Source of the DNA: a virus
Taxonomy: Duplodnaviria > Heunggongvirae > Uroviricota > Caudoviricetes
Virus record (IMG/VR): IMGVR_UViG_2695420427_000002
Length of the DNA: 8,008 nucleotides
Direction: 5' to 3' (one strand)
Positions 675 through 7,881 of the stretch are shown one piece after another. The translations under genes and the position numbers were made by a program. Position 1 is the stretch's first letter, and each line of letters begins with the position of its first letter. The notes beneath the pieces are model-generated. The model saw nothing but the letters and a program-made list of their open reading frames with translations. It was not told the DNA's origin and did not search any database.

Positions 675-749
<75 letters not shown>

Positions 750-752
750 ATA

Positions 753-828
<76 letters not shown>

Positions 829-830
829 GC

Positions 831-907
831 TGGCCCACCACCGAGGACTCGAACCTCGCACCGTCAACTTAGAAGGTTGATGCTCTATCCGGATGAGCTA
901 GTGGTGG
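831..907 (-). tRNA. tRNA-Arg (anticodon UCU, reads AGA/AGG), 77 nt with encoded CCA
   Basis: Reverse complement reads CCACCACTAGCTCATCCGGATAGAGCATCAACCTTCTAAGTTGACGGTGCGAGGTTCGAGTCCTCGGTGGTGGGCCA. Acceptor stem CCACCAC/GTGGTGG (C1-G72), anticodon stem TCAAC/GTTGA with loop CTTCTAA, T-stem CGAGG/CCTCG. 2-nt spacer to the Thr tRNA. Confidence 0.85.
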
Positions 908-908
908 T

Positions 909-985
909 TGGTGGCCCTTGCTGGACTTGAACCAGCGACCTGGCGATTATGAGTCGCTCGCTCTGACCAACTGAGCTAAAGGGCC
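909..985 (-). tRNA. tRNA with CAU anticodon, probably Ile2-type (AUA-reading, lysidine-modified) rather than elongator Met
   Basis: Reverse complement reads GGCCCTTTAGCTCAGTTGGTCAGAGCGAGCGACTCATAATCGCCAGGTCGCTGGTTCAAGTCCAGCAAGGGCCACCA. Acceptor stem GGCCCTT/AAGGGCC, anticodon loop CTCATAA. The anticodon and T arms resemble enterobacterial ileX-type tRNA as I recall it. 1-nt spacer to the Arg tRNA. Confidence 0.85.
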
Positions 986-994
986 GGAGGCAGA

Positions 995-1023
995 ATAATA
1001 ACCATATGTCATCACATCTGCAA
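995..1023 (-). promoter_or_regulatory. Candidate sigma70 promoter for the tRNA array (TTGCAG-17-TATTAT)
   Basis: Minus-strand -35 TTGCAG (plus 1018-1023), 17-bp spacer, -10 TATTAT (plus 995-1000), placing the start a few nt upstream of the first tRNA 5' end at 985. Confidence 0.35.
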
Positions 1024-1073
1024 ACTCATCTGACCACCAGCACGTTTAACGTCCTGTGCCGTTTTTCAGGTAT

Positions 1074-1096
1074 AAAAAAACCCGCATAAAGCGGGC
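1074..1096 (-). terminator. Short rho-independent terminator just downstream of the Q-position gene (tR'-like position)
   Basis: Inverted repeat cccgc (1081-1085) / gcggg (1091-1095) with loop ataaa. On the minus strand it is followed by seven U (plus-strand A-run 1074-1080). It lies about 80 bp downstream of the stop at 1175-1177. Confidence 0.5.
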
Positions 1097-1174
1097 TCTT
1101 TCAAATGTCCATGTCTGCTATTCGCCTCGCGGTACAGCTTTGCGAAGCGTACAAGAATTGAAGCAGTTTTTACG

Positions 1175-1729
1175 TCAAAAAGCAATAACTTTTTTCTCTA
1201 TACCAAAAGCCATAACCATTGGTTTGTACAAAATAAATTCTGCCACCTTTAGCCAATGCTCAATGCGTCTTTCACAGGTTCTTAAACTCCATTTCGGGTG
1301 TGCATCATTCAGCAGTTCAGCCATTTTGCGTTTGGTCATCCCCCGCCCCTCATACCGTTGCCGAAGGACGCTAATCAATCCTGGATGCTCTGCCAGCACC
1401 TCACTTATGACCCGATCAATACATAACGCCTCTGCATCAGTACAATGCGCCAGCCAGCTCTTTTGCTTACCGTTAATCATATCCCGCAAAAAAGCCTCAA
1501 GTTCAGACTTGTTCAGACCTGCTTTTTTCATCCTCCGGAGCGCCTCGTTAATTGCCGTTTTTGTCAGCTTTTTAGAGGTCAACATCAGGTTAAACATATT
1601 CCCCGTCTTACCGCCACCAATATACGACCAGCGCCCCCACATACGTAGTTTTCCCTGAATCCAGACACTTTCCAGCGTGGTGAGACGAAGGTGTTCTCCG
1701 CTTTTTCCTGTATTCGTTGGGTAAATCAT
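1175..1729 (-). CDS. 184-aa protein at the Q position; putative late-gene regulator/antiterminator by synteny only
   Basis: Start ATG at 1729-1727 is preceded by GAAAGGAGGG 7 nt upstream and overlaps the upstream stop (ATGA at 1726-1729), so the longer 224-aa track ORF is not the real start. It is the last gene before the terminator and tRNA array. No Zn-finger motif recognised, so Q identity is an inference. Confidence 0.6.
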   Translation of the reverse strand: MIYPTNTGKSGEHLRLTTLESVWIQGKLRMWGRWSYIGGGKTGNMFNLMLTSKKLTKTAINEALRRMKKAGLNKSELEAFLRDMINGKQKSWLAHCTDAEALCIDRVISEVLAEHPGLISVLRQRYEGRGMTKRKMAELLNDAHPKWSLRTCERRIEHWLKVAEFILYKPMVMAFGIEKKVIAF

Positions 1730-2691: not shown

Positions 2692-2797
2692 AGGATGCTC
2701 TGACTCGCAATTCATCCAGCAGTTTATCATTTCCCATAATGTCACTTACCCTCATCGGTAAAAAAATTGCCTTTCGACCATAGAAGCAGTTTTTACG

Positions 2798-3352
2798 TCA
2801 AAAAGCAATAACTTTTTTCTCTATACCAAAAGCCATAACCATTGGTTTGTACAAAATAAATTCTGCCACCTTTAGCCAATGCTCAATGCGTCTTTCACAG
2901 GTTCTTAAACTCCATTTCGGGTGTGCATCATTCAGCAGTTCAGCCATTTTGCGTTTGGTCATCCCCCGCCCCTCATACCGTTGCCGAAGGACGCTAATCA
3001 ATCCTGGATGCTCTGCCAGCACCTCACTTATGACCCGATCAATACATAACGCCTCTGCATCAGTACAATGCGCCAGCCAGCTCTTTTGCTTACCGTTAAT
3101 CATATCCCGCAAAAAAGCCTCAAGTTCAGACTTGTTCAGACCTGCTTTTTTCATCCTCCGGAGCGCCTCGTTAATTGCCGTTTTTGTCAGCTTTTTAGAG
3201 GTCAACATCAGGTTAAACATATTCCCCGTCTTACCGCCACCAATATACGACCAGCGCCCCCACATACGTAGTTTTCCCTGAATCCAGACACTTTCCAGCG
3301 TGGTGAGACGAAGGTGTTCTCCGCTTTTTCCTGTATTCGTTGGGTAAATCAT
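2798..3352 (-). CDS. 184-aa Q-position protein, copy 2 (identical protein to copy 1)
   Basis: Identical translation to 1175-1729, same Shine-Dalgarno and ATGA coupling. Here it is followed after 15 bp by the unique junction, not by the terminator and tRNAs. Confidence 0.6.
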   Translation of the reverse strand: MIYPTNTGKSGEHLRLTTLESVWIQGKLRMWGRWSYIGGGKTGNMFNLMLTSKKLTKTAINEALRRMKKAGLNKSELEAFLRDMINGKQKSWLAHCTDAEALCIDRVISEVLAEHPGLISVLRQRYEGRGMTKRKMAELLNDAHPKWSLRTCERRIEHWLKVAEFILYKPMVMAFGIEKKVIAF

Positions 3353-3639
3353 AAATATCCCTCCTTTCTCCAGATTTCTTGTGTGCGAAAAACACCTTCT
3401 GCATGCATCAGGCGTAATTCTTCTTTGGTGTAATCGCTGGTTTTTACCCGCCCGTCGATTAAATCGTGGCACGAGCTACAGGCAATCGCTGCCTGCATAT
3501 CGTGTGGCTTTATCGCTGTTCCGCACGTTCCCGCCAGTCGGTAATGCGCCAGCACAGACGTTTCCGGATCGTGATTGCAGTAGCCAGGAATTCTGACGGT
3601 GCACATCTGCCCCCGCGCCGCTTTACGTAAATCCACCAT
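3349..3639 (-). CDS. YbcO-like 96-aa protein, copy 2
   Basis: Identical translation to 1726-2016. Confidence 0.6.
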   Translation of the reverse strand: MVDLRKAARGQMCTVRIPGYCNHDPETSVLAHYRLAGTCGTAIKPHDMQAAIACSSCHDLIDGRVKTSDYTKEELRLMHAEGVFRTQEIWRKEGYL

Positions 3640-4238
3640 TACGCAAACTCCAGCAGCTGCGCGGCCACATTTTCGACTTGTTCCGGAGAGGAAAATTTAC
3701 GGAACAGAATCCAGTTCCACAGCACATTCAGAACAGATTTATAAACCTGCTGAAACTCGGTTTCGTCCATATTCGCAAACGCGATAGATTTCGCCCGACA
3801 CCCACGGCTACCGTCCGGATAAAAATGCTCGGTGTAAAATCCGGCCTGAATGGCTACCCACTCGCGGAAAGCCTCAAACGACTTTAGCAATGCCGTATCA
3901 CTGGTTCTGCGTGTCGCAACTGTATTCAGATATTGCTCTGCGGCTTCGCTCAGAGCTGGCGTATGTTCCCGGCCTACTGATTCACACAGGTAATCAACGA
4001 AACCGGACACCAGTTTTCGTTCGCGAGGCGTGATCGCCCCACCGACCGGAGTCCAGTAATCGAAACCCAGTTGCAGGAGTTTGAAAAAACGCTTGTGGAA
4101 TGCGTAGTTACACACACGCTTAAAGTCTGCGTGTATCCACTCACCTATTTTGATTTGATGCAGAAAATCGCAACTCTCCGGCGTCGCCGGGAGAAGTAAT
4201 CCGGAAGAGGTTTGTTTGACCAGTTGTATATGTGCCAT
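3639..4238 (-). CDS. 199-aa conserved prophage protein, copy 2 (divergent allele, 7 aa differences)
   Basis: ATG at 4238-4236 with Shine-Dalgarno (ccggagaaagccgATG). The 213-aa track ORF begins at a TTG at 4280 and is probably not the true start. Differs from copies 1 and 3 at T/I, R/C, EL/KV, R/S, T/A and R/C. Confidence 0.65.
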   Translation of the reverse strand: MAHIQLVKQTSSGLLLPATPESCDFLHQIKIGEWIHADFKRVCNYAFHKRFFKLLQLGFDYWTPVGGAITPRERKLVSGFVDYLCESVGREHTPALSEAAEQYLNTVATRRTSDTALLKSFEAFREWVAIQAGFYTEHFYPDGSRGCRAKSIAFANMDETEFQQVYKSVLNVLWNWILFRKFSSPEQVENVAAQLLEFA

Positions 4239-4276
4239 CGGCTTTCTCCGGTGGCACGGTGTTACACAGCAGGAGT

Positions 4277-4564
4277 TCAATCCTGCTCAAGATTGTAGAT
4301 GAGTTTATTCTTCAGCAAAAGCAGAAAACCAGCCTTAAAACCAATCTCTTTCAAAACCCGTAATGATGTGACAAATTCGTCCTCACGCAAAATAAAACCG
4401 TCCGTCAGAAGTCCATTACAAAAATAAAATAACACAGCACCGCTCTTCCTTTGTTGAGATTGCAAACATCTAATGCGGCAATGGCTGACAATCGCTCCAT
4501 TCTCAACGCGCACAGCATAGAGGCCATTTTCACTAAAAATTTCACGCAATTCTTCGATTTTCAT
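4277..4564 (-). CDS. 95-aa hypothetical protein, first gene of the operon (at the position rem occupies in E. coli Qin)
   Basis: ATG at 4564-4562 with GGAAGG about 10 nt upstream and a candidate promoter about 80 bp upstream. Identical second copy at 6275-6562. Function unknown. Confidence 0.5.
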   Translation of the reverse strand: MKIEELREIFSENGLYAVRVENGAIVSHCRIRCLQSQQRKSGAVLFYFCNGLLTDGFILREDEFVTSLRVLKEIGFKAGFLLLLKNKLIYNLEQD

Positions 4565-4645
4565 CTTCAGAATCCTTCCAGATAAATAGCTCTCCCCTGT
4601 TCGGGGTCCATCCCTCTTCTCCCTGCGCGCTACTTAAGTGAGTCG

Positions 4646-4673
4646 ATTCTATCTGCGAAGGTGCGCGAATCAA
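4646..4673 (-). promoter_or_regulatory. Candidate sigma70 promoter for the 95-aa / 199-aa / YbcO-like / Q-position operon (TTGATT-16-TAGAAT)
   Basis: Minus-strand -35 TTGATT (plus 4668-4673), 16-bp spacer, -10 TAGAAT (plus 4646-4651), about 80 bp upstream of the 95-aa gene start. Confidence 0.4.
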
Positions 4674-4693
4674 ATTCACCGGAAATAAACAAC

Positions 4694-4736
4694 AAAAAAC
4701 CCGCCGAAACGCTGAGAGATCACAGCGATGGGCGGG
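4694..4736 (-). terminator. Rho-independent terminator downstream of hok
   Basis: Nested hairpin: outer arms cccgcc (4700-4705) / ggcggg (4731-4736), inner stem cgctg/cagcg. On the minus strand it is followed by six U (plus-strand aaaaaa 4694-4699). A 9-bp GC stem gggcgggga/tccccgccc at 4778-4805 lies in the hok 3' UTR. Confidence 0.55.
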
Positions 4737-4813
4737 TTAAGTGCGGGTGCGTTGAGGATGCCTGACACATCAGAGGTGGGCGGGGATGGGATCAGCTCCC
4801 CGCCCGGTCACTC

Positions 4814-4969
4814 TTACTTCCTGGATTCGTAGTCTACGAAGACAGCGACCTCCGTCTGGCCGGTTCGGATTCGTACCTCACAGAGGTCTTTCCTCGTTAC
4901 CAGTGCCGTCACTATGACGGTTAAACAGATGACGATCAGGGCGATTAACATCGCCTTTTGCTGCTTCAT
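4814..4969 (-). CDS. hok: Hok/Gef-family type I toxin (51 aa), copy lacking its own promoter
   Basis: MKQQKAMLIALIVICLTVIVTALVTRKDLCEVRIRTGQTEVAVFVDYESRK: single transmembrane helix followed by the Hok-family LTRK-LCE-R-R-G-EVA-F motif, close to HokD/RelF as I recall it. Shine-Dalgarno AAGGAG upstream of the ATG at 4969. The track ORF is an in-frame upstream extension to 5026. Confidence 0.85.
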   Translation of the reverse strand: MKQQKAMLIALIVICLTVIVTALVTRKDLCEVRIRTGQTEVAVFVDYESRK

Positions 4970-5047
4970 AGCCTGCTTCTCCTTGCCTTTCGGCATGTAA
5001 GAGGCTAACCTACATGTGCAAAGCATGAAATTGGCCTCAGATTAATG

Positions 5048-5350
5048 TTAAGCGTCTTGCCGGACGCGTAATGTTAACTGGGGCTTTTCTCTATCTGCCT
5101 TTTGGTGTTCATGCCTGAAAAGTTCAGACTTGTTCAGACCTGCTTTTTTCATCCTCCGGAGCGCCTCGTTAATTGCCGTTTTTGTCAGCTTTTTAGAGGT
5201 CAACATCAGGTTAAACATATTCCCCGTCTTACCGCCACCAATATACGACCAGCGCCCCCACATACGTAGTTTTCCCTGAATCCAGACACTTTCCAGCGTG
5301 GTGAGACGAAGGTGTTCTCCGCTTTTTCCTGTATTCGTTGGGTAAATCAT
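5048..5350 (-). pseudogene. Truncated Q-position gene: first 76 codons fused at the repeat junction to the hok leader, giving a 24-aa unrelated tail
   Basis: Identical to the 5' part of 1175-1729 down to about 5120. The translation then diverges (ELFRHEHQKADREKPQLTLRVRQDA) because the sequence beyond 5119 is the end of the neighbouring repeat unit. Confidence 0.75.
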
Positions 5351-5637
5351 AAATATCCCTCCTTTCTCCAGATTTCTTGTGTGCGAAAAACACCTTCTGC
5401 ATGCATCAGGCGTAATTCTTCTTTGGTGTAATCGCTGGTTTTTACCCGCCCGTCGATTAAATCGTGGCACGAGCTACAGGCAATCGCTGCCTGCATATCG
5501 TGTGGCTTTATCGCTGTTCCGCACGTTCCCGCCAGTCGGTAATGCGCCAGCACAGACGTTTCCGGATCGTGATTGCAGTAGCCAGGAATTCTGACGGTGC
5601 ACATCTGCCCCCGCGCCGCTTTACGTAAATCCACCAT
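5347..5637 (-). CDS. YbcO-like 96-aa protein, copy 3
   Basis: Identical translation to 1726-2016. Confidence 0.6.
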   Translation of the reverse strand: MVDLRKAARGQMCTVRIPGYCNHDPETSVLAHYRLAGTCGTAIKPHDMQAAIACSSCHDLIDGRVKTSDYTKEELRLMHAEGVFRTQEIWRKEGYL

Positions 5638-6236
5638 TACGCAAACTCCAGCAGCTGCGCGGCCACATTTTCGACTTGTTCCGGAGAGGAAAATTTACGG
5701 AACAGAATCCAGTTCCACAGCACATTCAGAACAGATTTATAAACCTGCTGAAACTCGGTTTCGTCCATATTCGCAAAAGCGATGGATTTTGCCCGACGCC
5801 CGCGGCTACCGTCCGGATAAAAATGTTCGGTGTAAAATCCAGCCTGAATGGTTACCCACTCGCGAAAAGCCTCAAACGACTTTAGCAATGCCGTATCCCG
5901 GGTTCTGCGTGTCGCAACTGTATTCAGATATTGCTCTGCGGCTTCGCTCAGAGCTGGCGTATGTTCCCGACCTACTGATTCGCACAGGTAATCAACGAAA
6001 CCAGACAGCAGTTCTCGTTCGCGAGGCGTGATCGCCCCACCGACCGGAGTCCAGTAATCGAATCCCAGTTGCAGGAGTTTGAAAAAACGCTTGTGGAATG
6101 CGTAGTTACGCACACGCTTAAAGTCTGCGTGTATCCACTCACCTGTTTTGATTTGATGCAGAAAATCGCAACTCTCCGGCGTCGCCGGGAGAAGTAATCC
6201 GGAAGAGGTTTGTTTGACCAGTTGTATATGTGCCAT
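5637..6236 (-). CDS. 199-aa conserved prophage protein, copy 3 (recombinant allele)
   Basis: The 5' end matches copy 2 (V at residue 7, same upstream sequence) while the body matches copy 1 at all the variable sites. Confidence 0.65.
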   Translation of the reverse strand: MAHIQLVKQTSSGLLLPATPESCDFLHQIKTGEWIHADFKRVRNYAFHKRFFKLLQLGFDYWTPVGGAITPRERELLSGFVDYLCESVGREHTPALSEAAEQYLNTVATRRTRDTALLKSFEAFREWVTIQAGFYTEHFYPDGSRGRRAKSIAFANMDETEFQQVYKSVLNVLWNWILFRKFSSPEQVENVAAQLLEFA

Positions 6237-6274
6237 CGGCTTTCTCCGGTGGCACGGTGTTACACAGCAGGAGT

Positions 6275-6562
6275 TCAATCCTGCTCAAGATTGTAGATGA
6301 GTTTATTCTTCAGCAAAAGCAGAAAACCAGCCTTAAAACCAATCTCTTTCAAAACCCGTAATGATGTGACAAATTCGTCCTCACGCAAAATAAAACCGTC
6401 CGTCAGAAGTCCATTACAAAAATAAAATAACACAGCACCGCTCTTCCTTTGTTGAGATTGCAAACATCTAATGCGGCAATGGCTGACAATCGCTCCATTC
6501 TCAACGCGCACAGCATAGAGGCCATTTTCACTAAAAATTTCACGCAATTCTTCGATTTTCAT
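6275..6562 (-). CDS. 95-aa hypothetical protein, second copy
   Basis: Identical to 4277-4564, with the same Shine-Dalgarno and upstream promoter candidate. Confidence 0.5.
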   Translation of the reverse strand: MKIEELREIFSENGLYAVRVENGAIVSHCRIRCLQSQQRKSGAVLFYFCNGLLTDGFILREDEFVTSLRVLKEIGFKAGFLLLLKNKLIYNLEQD

Positions 6563-6643
6563 CTTCAGAATCCTTCCAGATAAATAGCTCTCCCCTGTTC
6601 GGGGTCCATCCCTCTTCTCCCTGCGCGCTACTTAAGTGAGTCG

Positions 6644-6671
6644 ATTCTATCTGCGAAGGTGCGCGAATCAA
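6644..6671 (-). promoter_or_regulatory. Candidate operon promoter, second copy (TTGATT-16-TAGAAT)
   Basis: Same sequence as 4646-4673 at the 1998-bp offset. Confidence 0.4.
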
Positions 6672-6691
6672 ATTCACCGGAAATAAACAAC

Positions 6692-6734
6692 AAAAAACCC
6701 GCCGAAACGCTGAGAGATCACAGCGATGGGCGGG
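6692..6734 (-). terminator. Terminator downstream of hok, second copy
   Basis: Same sequence as 4694-4736 at the 1998-bp offset. Confidence 0.55.
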
Positions 6735-6811
6735 TTAAGTGCGGGTGCGTTGAGGATGCCTGACACATCAGAGGTGGGCGGGGATGGGATCAGCTCCCCG
6801 CCCGGTCACTC

Positions 6812-6967
6812 TTACTTCCTGGATTCGTAGTCTACGAAGACAGCGACCTCCGTCTGGCCGGTTCGGATTCGTACCTCACAGAGGTCTTTCCTCGTTACCA
6901 GTGCCGTCACTATGACGGTTAAACAGATGACGATCAGGGCGATTAACATCGCCTTTTGCTGCTTCAT
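6812..6967 (-). CDS. hok: Hok/Gef-family type I toxin (51 aa), copy with its native upstream region
   Basis: Identical to 4814-4969. Its leader extends into unique sequence at 7118-7194 that contains a promoter candidate. Confidence 0.85.
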   Translation of the reverse strand: MKQQKAMLIALIVICLTVIVTALVTRKDLCEVRIRTGQTEVAVFVDYESRK

Positions 6968-7143
6968 AGCCTGCTTCTCCTTGCCTTTCGGCATGTAAGA
7001 GGCTAACCTACATGTGCAAAGCATGAAATTGGCCTCAGATTAATGTTAAGCGTCTTGCCGGACGCGTAATGTTAACTGGGGCTTTTCTCTATCTGCCTTT
7101 TGGTGTTCATGCCTGAAGCAGATAGCCTCAAGCACCCGCAGTC

Positions 7144-7194: not shown

Positions 7195-7881
7195 TCACTC
7201 CTTCTCTTCTTTACCGTAGTGGAGTTGACCAATTTTGATAAGAGGGCGTCCCTGAGATTTGCGGTGTAGATTGGTATCGCGCAGAGAATACACACAGCCA
7301 CAATATTCCTGCTGATAGAATTTTTCGCGCTTGCTGATTTCAATCATACGGGACGAGCCGCCCTGCTTGCGCCAGTTATAATCCCAGTACACCATGCCCG
7401 GATAATGCGCGACGGCTCGCCGCCCACAGTCGTTAACCTGCTGCATATTTTTCCAGCGTGAAATGCCCAGTGAACTGCTGATCACACTGAAACCATTTTC
7501 AGCGGCGTACAGCGCTGTCCGCTCAAAACGCATGTCAAAACACATGGTGCAACGGATCCCTCGTTCGGGCTCCCATTCCATTCCTTTGGCTCGTTCAAAC
7601 CAGTTGTCTGTGTCGTAATCAGCATCAATAAACGGCACGCCGTGTTGTTCAGCAAAGCGAATATTCTCATCCTTACGAATTAAATACTCTTTCTGAGGAT
7701 GAATGTTCGGGTTGTAGAAAAAGATGGTGTAGTCGATTCCCGAGGCCTGAAGCGCCTCCATCACCTCACCGGAACATGGAGCACAGCAAGAGTGCAGTAG
7801 TAGTTTGTTTGCCCCGTTTGGGAGCTCCAATTTGGGCCGTTTGAAATCAGCAACTGTCATAAATATGTTTATTGGGGTCAT
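7195..7881 (-). CDS. queH: QueH-like epoxyqueuosine reductase (DUF208 family), 228 aa
   Basis: Long clean ORF with the Cys-rich HSCCAPCS motif near the N-terminus and a C-terminal CGC motif, which I recognise as the DUF208/QueH signature. No obvious Shine-Dalgarno at either candidate start (7881 or 7860). Confidence 0.6.

Follow-up and report, generated by a model that had tools for sequence, protein, structure and literature searches.

The stretch of DNA analysed here (8,008 nt, IMG/VR record IMGVR_UViG_2695420427_000002; hereafter the window) belongs to a Rac-like lambdoid prophage of E. coli/Shigella. Positions 1175-1729 on its minus strand hold a real open reading frame of 184 aa, a predicted Q-like late antiterminator gene of the DUF1133 family and the last gene of a DUF1367-YbcO-Q block. 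Its ATG at 1729 overlaps the YbcO stop codon as ATGA and is preceded, 8 nt upstream, by AAGGAGG. A longer, 224-aa reading from a GTG start was rejected because all homologues begin at the same MIYP. The same DNA is found in single copy in E. coli FDAARGOS_944, where the gene order is QueH, hokD, Rem, DUF1367, DUF1364 (YbcO), DUF1133, four tRNA genes, holin, lysozyme, Rz and terminase; the DUF1133 gene is therefore the last before the late region. A sequence-only reading of the window had put the gene in this place, directly ahead of a short terminator and the tRNA/late region, and the FDAARGOS_944 order, RNA folding and ARAGORN all agree with it.

Four tRNA genes (675-985, minus strand), identified by ARAGORN, Rfam and the RefSeq annotation of the reference locus, lie between the terminator and the lysis genes: a CAT tRNA of Met/Ile2 type, Arg-TCT, Thr-TGT and Gly-TCC. 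The first of them (909-985, minus strand) is called Met, anticodon CAT, by ARAGORN, while RefSeq gives tRNA-Ile, the lysidine-modified CAT type, for the identical gene of FDAARGOS_944. A lysidine-type CAT tRNA together with Arg-TCT, Thr-TGT and Gly-TCC would serve rare codons. Upstream of the first tRNA gene, past the terminator, there is a sigma70-like site, TTTGCA-18-TATTAT (995-1024, minus strand; a consensus match only), which could allow Q-independent expression of the tRNA cluster. The element that carries these four tRNA genes also encodes a QueH-type epoxyqueuosine reductase in its early region (7195-7881, minus strand; PF02677, E 2e-65), an arrangement annotated in many E. coli prophages, e.g. 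that of APEC O1.

Tandem copies of the module

The window carries three tandem copies of the DUF1367-YbcO-Q module between positions 1157 and 7117. Positions 1157-2632 equal 2780-4255 at 98.2% identity, and 3122-5119 equal 5120-7117 at 99.0% identity in a head-to-tail unit of 1998 nt. Only copy 1, at 1175-1729, has a complete downstream cassette. A second, identical and intact copy of the gene lies at 2798-3352 (minus strand), its cassette broken at 2780/2779: it keeps the -35 element, the spacer, the candidate Q-binding hexamer and AAACTGC, past the junction it has TTCTAT in place of TTCAAT, and the DUF1367 upstream region stands where the pause element and terminator would be. If active, the promoter of copy 2 would drive transcription into copy 1 with no Q-controlled terminator in between. 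The third copy (5048-5350, minus strand) is truncated, just as the sequence-only reading had noticed. Its first 77 codons (5120-5350) encode residues identical to those of the full-length protein; it is then fused at 5120/5119 to sequence normally found upstream of hok, which gives it a chimeric tail, and its PF06576 match covers profile positions 1-78 only.

The 147-nt segment 2633-2779 matches the DUF1367 upstream sequence of other E. coli prophages at 100% identity. Neither junction, 2780/2779 or 5120/5119, has clean microhomology. The 2780/2779 junction joined to the Q 3′ flank occurred in 0 of 5,426 complete E. coli genomes, and a search of the records for the chimeric truncated ORF did not find it. 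Genomes with the exact Q protein carry it in two different prophage contexts; therefore, the tandem array may be genuine, formed by recombination between two prophages, or an artefact of assembly. The hok/sok regulatory RNA (RF01794, Rfam; 6962-7137, minus strand) was found only for the hok copy at 6812-7024. For the second hok copy (4814-5026, minus strand) the junction at 5119 interrupts the equivalent region roughly 20 nt before the RF01794 model is complete, so that this copy has an incomplete leader and antitoxin region.

Relation of the 184-aa protein to phage 21 Q

Residues 1-176 of the protein match PF06576 (DUF1133) over the whole profile (1-176 of 176; E 2e-107, 356.7 bits against a cut-off of 23.1). 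The second Pfam match is PF06530 (Phage_antitermQ), with 29.4 bits against a curated gathering cut-off of 26, and the PHROG families matched are annotated ‘anti-termination protein Q-like’. NCBIfam has no model matching the protein, hence the RefSeq name ‘DUF1133 family protein’. The sole significant matches among PDB sequences are Q21, the antiterminator of phage 21 (E 4e-4 with phmmer and the single sequence, 2.8e-5 with hmmsearch and a profile). When 50 DUF1133 sequences were compared with 29 Q21-type sequences by hhalign, 136 columns were aligned, query residues 12-178 falling on Q21 residues 4-152, at a probability of 98.4% and E 8.9e-15. Genuine Q21-type proteins carry precomputed matches to both PF06576 and PF06530 and are named DUF1133 in some sources, which makes the two families sisters. 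Thus, the sequence-only reading, which had missed any recognisable hallmark of the Q family and had suggested searching Q-family profiles, was right by eye only, since profile and fold methods recognise the protein as a relative of Q21. It had also credited the protein with only two cysteines; we count three (C96, C103 and C152).

A search of 1.84 billion representatives returned only 89 clusters, mostly fragments, and reached one Q21-type cluster (E 9e-5). By this search the DUF1133 family is narrow. Its range takes in Escherichia, Shigella, Salmonella, Citrobacter, Klebsiella and Providencia, and the 184-aa protein is very common in prophages: its exact sequence turns up in 3,743 indexed blocks of the assembly collection. 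Two close homologues (L009 and L015) come from contigs labelled Candidatus Nanosynbacter (a MAG) and Vagococcus, in all likelihood enterobacterial contaminants or products of mis-binning. Antitermination protein Q is already the name given to the protein in some phage records, and PHROGs also call it Q-like by remote homology. Our literature search found no experimental study of the DUF1133 family, and a mention of it in one paper, which likewise takes it for Q-like but as an HHpred call only (PMC8136144).

An AlphaFold model built on a 50-sequence alignment that includes members from Pantoea, Pectobacterium, Kluyvera and Yersinia has an overall pLDDT of 72.7 and a core above 88; an earlier run with 31 close homologues (pLDDT 56) was too poor for use. 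The predicted model has the three-dimensional fold of Q21: the top 12 Foldseek matches are all Q21 structures, with E-values down to 4.5e-5 and target-normalised TM-scores up to 0.73. The protein is homologous to Q21 (PDB 6P18, 6P19, 6P1A-C, 6JNX and 6JNY; PF06530) along its whole length, at about 19% identity in the Foldseek alignments. The N-terminal WxxGxLxxWGxW helix is conserved, as is the C-x-D motif (C58/D60 in Q21, C96/D98 here). AlpA of Pseudomonas aeruginosa (PDB 7XYA, 7XYB) gives a far weaker match than Q21 and has no sequence similarity to the protein; the match probably reflects the shared helix-turn-helix (HTH) only.

The HTH itself is present and modelled at pLDDT above 88. Several of its residues are kept between Q21 and the 184-aa protein (K94 = K133, T125 = T151, C126 = C152, R128 = R154). 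In Q21, the HTH (H5-H6) contacts DNA through S93, K94, H95, A124, T125, R127 and R128 (PMC6606751). In the hhalign register these correspond to T132, K133, R134, R150, T151, E153 and R154, so that three of the seven are identical. The replacement of the base-contacting R127 by E153 counts against a Q21-like reading; judged from the sequence, the changes at contact residues fit a different target site.

Two further segments set the DUF1133 proteins apart from Q21. Residues ~32-56 of Q21 correspond to ~40-94 here, so that the L1-H2-L2 segment gains about 30 residues and two or three predicted helices. In Q21 this segment moves by tens of angstroms and forms a ring (‘nozzle’) in the RNA-exit channel (bioRxiv 10.1101/651190; PMC6606751). 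Residues ~40-94, which may form a comparable ring, have low confidence (pLDDT 44-67) in our monomer model. The other segment is L3, the long HT[loop]H loop between the two HTH helices. In Q21 this loop reaches into and reads the minor groove, where R113 makes a contact, and it ties the downstream protomer to its upstream partner. Here L3 is 13 residues shorter, R113 and the inter-protomer contact being among what is lost, and every aligned DUF1133 sequence has the same deletion.

With lambda Q (PF03589) and phage 82 Q the protein shares its predicted regulatory role and its gene position, together with a cassette logic in which a binding site in the promoter, a sigma-dependent pause and a terminator are combined. 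It has no match to the family profiles of lambda-type and 82-type Q. Structure comparison, proposed by the sequence-only reading with both Q21 and Q-lambda in mind, likewise led to Q21 and gave no match to the solved lambda Q structures. Lambda Q is named PF03589 in bioRxiv 10.1101/651190, and pfam06323 is also listed as ‘Antiterminator Q’ in PMC8136144.

Late promoter, pause element and terminator

Loci from other species (32) and from close relatives (four) were compared with the annotated late region of phage 21. Comparative sequence analysis places a candidate late promoter directly downstream of the gene, with a single candidate subsite between its -35 and -10 elements, a -10-like candidate pause element in the initial transcribed region and a terminator. 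A candidate -35 element, TTGCTT (1180-1185, minus strand), proposed from conservation, lies within the last codons of the gene; TTGnnn is found 34 nt upstream of TAnGCT in most of about 30 related loci, and TTGACA 36 nt upstream of the pause element in phage 21. The putative Q-binding subsite TGACGT (1172-1177, minus strand), proposed from its position and from co-variation, overlaps the stop codon; it lies 26 nt upstream of the pause element, at the distance of the QBEu subsite (TGAGCA) in phage 21. A conserved AAACTG (1164-1169) precedes a candidate extended -10 element, TGC-TTCAAT (1157-1165, minus strand), suggested by conservation and analogy, which is without the usual A at -11. The pattern TGnTTnAAT is conserved 17 nt after the -35 element in cassettes of the window type and of the 192-aa type. 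The -10-like hexamer TACGCT (1146-1151, minus strand), at about -1 to +5 of the late transcript, is a candidate sigma-dependent pause element by conservation and by comparison with phage 21. At lambda PR′, a -10-like element likewise stands right at the transcript start. TAnGCT occurs at a fixed distance in 29 of 34 tabulated DUF1133 loci, among which the spurious anchor of one (L050) was corrected by hand to TACGCT.

Downstream of these elements folding predicts an intrinsic, tR′-like terminator (1073-1103, minus strand) with the stem AGAGCCCGC/GCGGGTTTT, a TTTAT loop, a GC core at 1096-1080 and a T-run at 1080-1074. The 81-nt leader folds at -30.9 kcal/mol (z = -4.5), and the predicted terminated leader is about 75 nt long. 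The late promoter escaped a simple promoter/terminator scanner, as did the terminator that the sequence-only reading had placed at 1074-1096; for this reason we relied on folding, which supports that terminator, and on comparative alignment. The terminator core AACCCGC-loop-GCGGGTTTTTT is found at the equivalent place in most relatives. An 8-bp hairpin in the 5′ leader (1149-1142 with 1130-1123) was rejected as an RNA element, since RNAalifold on nine relatives kept 3 pairs and found no compensatory change, and Rfam has no family for the leader.

The layout common to most DUF1133 loci is TTGnnn, 17 nt, TGnTTnAAT, 5 nt, TAnGCT, 45-100 nt and a terminator, and the cassette is conserved across Escherichia, Salmonella, Citrobacter, Klebsiella, Enterobacter, Buttiauxella, Kluyvera and Providencia. 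The phage 21 record annotates a -35 element (TTGACA), QBEu ATTGAGCA, QBEd AATGAGCA, a -10 element (AACACT), a start site, a pause element (TAAGCTG, at +2 to +8), a terminator, two tRNA genes and a holin. Both systems thus have a Q gene, a late promoter, a TAnGCT -10-like pause element, a short terminator, tRNAs and lysis genes, in that layout. The phage 21 tRNAs are Asn and Thr. The two systems differ in that the pause hexamer starts 13 nt after the start of the -10 element in phage 21 and 11 nt after it here, and in that the DUF1133 cassette has an extra ~30-50 nt between pause element and terminator.

By analogy with phage 21 and Providencia, we infer that TAnGCT is a sigma-dependent pause element at the transcript start and that the hexamer before it is the promoter -10 element. 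TTCAAT has no A at -11, where one is usual, so TACGCT could be the -10 element instead; it has an A at -11 and a T at -7, and in many relatives a TGn before it. This would shift the start site and leave the cassette without an assigned pause element. We rank it second because Providencia and phage 21 have a separate promoter just upstream of the hexamer, the Providencia loci reading near-consensus TTGACT-16-TATAGT followed 7 nt later by TACGCT.

The hexamer 26 nt upstream of TAnGCT, at the position of QBEu in phage 21, tracks the predicted recognition helix in about 30 relatives, a co-variation partly confounded by linkage, as the spacer of the 192-aa group is itself part of the gene's coding sequence. 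Helices reading TCRRR go with TGAGC(A/C) or TGAAC(A/C) at 15 loci, with one exception (L015, TGCACC). The TCRRE helix of Q21 contacts its published TGAGCA subsite through T125, R127 and R128 (PMC6606751). TCRN is paired with TTAGCC at one locus (L048), and TCRNE, in the Q21-type phage BTP1, with TTATCC, TTAGCC standing at -18. TCE[S/T/N]R goes with TTGCGC at 8 loci, and TCE[R/K]R with T(T/G)ACG(T/C) in the window (TGACGT) and 3 close relatives. Three loci (L046, L048 and L050) have cassettes otherwise of the window type, together with another helix and the hexamer that goes with that helix; the spacers of L048 and L050 are non-coding. A direct repeat of the specificity subsite, like that of phage 21, was rejected: the -18 position reads AAA(C/G)TG in nearly all DUF1133 loci regardless of the helix. 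The DUF1133 cassette accordingly has one helix-specific candidate subsite, against the direct repeat of two in phage 21.

Late antitermination and alternative functions

Homology, predicted fold, synteny and a conserved cis-layout with co-variation make it very probable that the gene encodes the late antiterminator (Q) of a Rac-like lambdoid prophage, that DUF1133 is a sister subfamily of phage 21 Q and that the protein acts by a Q21-like mechanism; DNA binding, pausing, loading and read-through are ascribed to it by analogy with Q21. In such a scheme, RNA polymerase would initiate from a weak, constitutive late promoter lying across the gene's 3′ end (TTGCTT, 1185-1180; TGC-TTCAAT, 1165-1157). 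Sigma70 region 2 would then re-bind the -10-like TACGCT (1151-1146) and cause a promoter-near pause of the polymerase. The HTH of the 184-aa protein would bind between the -35 and -10 elements (candidate TGACGT, 1177-1172) and dock on the paused polymerase, and its N-terminal segment would form a ring at the RNA-exit channel, so that neither the hairpin at 1103-1073 nor later terminators could form. By staying with the polymerase, the protein would let transcription reach the tRNA, lysis and morphogenesis genes. The sequence-only reading had expected a late antiterminator from synteny and had offered a divergent Q family or another type of late regulator; the Q21 homology, the fold and the phage-21-like cassette support the former, and the latter is not needed.

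DUF1133 is thus an uncharacterised subfamily of Q21-type antiterminators and not a new kind of regulator, and the result refines a well-understood antitermination mechanism rather than adding a new one. Whole-length homology to Q21 and a matching cassette justify annotation of the late switch in Rac-like prophages, and the annotation extends to Stx prophages and, probably, LT-II prophages with the DUF1133 type of Q (PMC8136144).

Other readings of the locus were weighed against late antitermination. A protein with an HTH at a late promoter might act on initiation, as a sigma-region-4-like DNA-binding activator or as a repressor, and leave elongation unmodified; we consider this very unlikely. 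We regard as just as improbable that the gene is an intact but idle remnant, exerting no control in its host, within a defective prophage whose tandem array is a product of rearrangement or assembly. The gene may indeed be idle in its host, as the IS-rich genomes with the exact protein carry decayed prophages with IS elements between Q and the lysis/tail genes; the absence of both array junctions from the 5,426 complete genomes, the unrecorded chimeric ORF, the loss of pause element and terminator in copy 2 and the truncation of copy 3 point the same way. However, copy 1 keeps the complete cassette, the identical protein sequence occurs in thousands of assemblies, and intact lysis, terminase and portal genes follow the same module in FDAARGOS_944. 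Idleness in one host would, moreover, leave the identity of the protein unchanged.

A function unrelated to transcription, e.g. in nin-region DNA metabolism like that of the neighbours YbcO and DUF1367, has the smallest chance of all. It would suit the nuclease-like or NinB-like character of the neighbouring products (Pfam, PHROGs) and the fact that neither Pfam nor RefSeq assigns the family a function. Yet all sequence, profile and fold comparisons point to Q21 alone, and the downstream cassette is of the Q type, with a variable hexamer that follows the recognition helix.

Within late antitermination, the missing loop, the single subsite, the longer nozzle segment and the match between helix and hexamer bear on how Q21-type factors recognise their promoters. 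Since the inter-protomer L3 loop is missing and a second specific subsite was not found, the sequences suggest, as a hypothesis only, a variant loading mode with a single DNA-bound protomer. Taken further, DUF1133 could be a streamlined Q21-type antiterminator with single-protomer loading, which would have lost the loop and the second subsite, enlarged the exit-channel segment and followed a transferable helix-hexamer code; we put this forward tentatively and consider it possible rather than probable. In terms of Q21 positions 127/128, the code would read RR for TGAGCA, RN for TTAGCC, E[S/T/N] for TTGCGC and E[R/K] for T(G/T)ACGy. If true, it would let the specificity of the late switch be predicted or re-engineered in thousands of enterobacterial prophages.

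Different late cassettes, with no TAnGCT at the usual place, were seen at L003, L004, L008 (about 3050-3250) and L045 (1150-1280), where the helices read TCCSRV and, in one case, TCRRRV. L003 has TTGACT-17-CTATAT followed by two GC hairpins, and L045 has TGCTAAAAT followed by a consensus TATAAT. The DUF1133 family therefore uses more than one promoter architecture.
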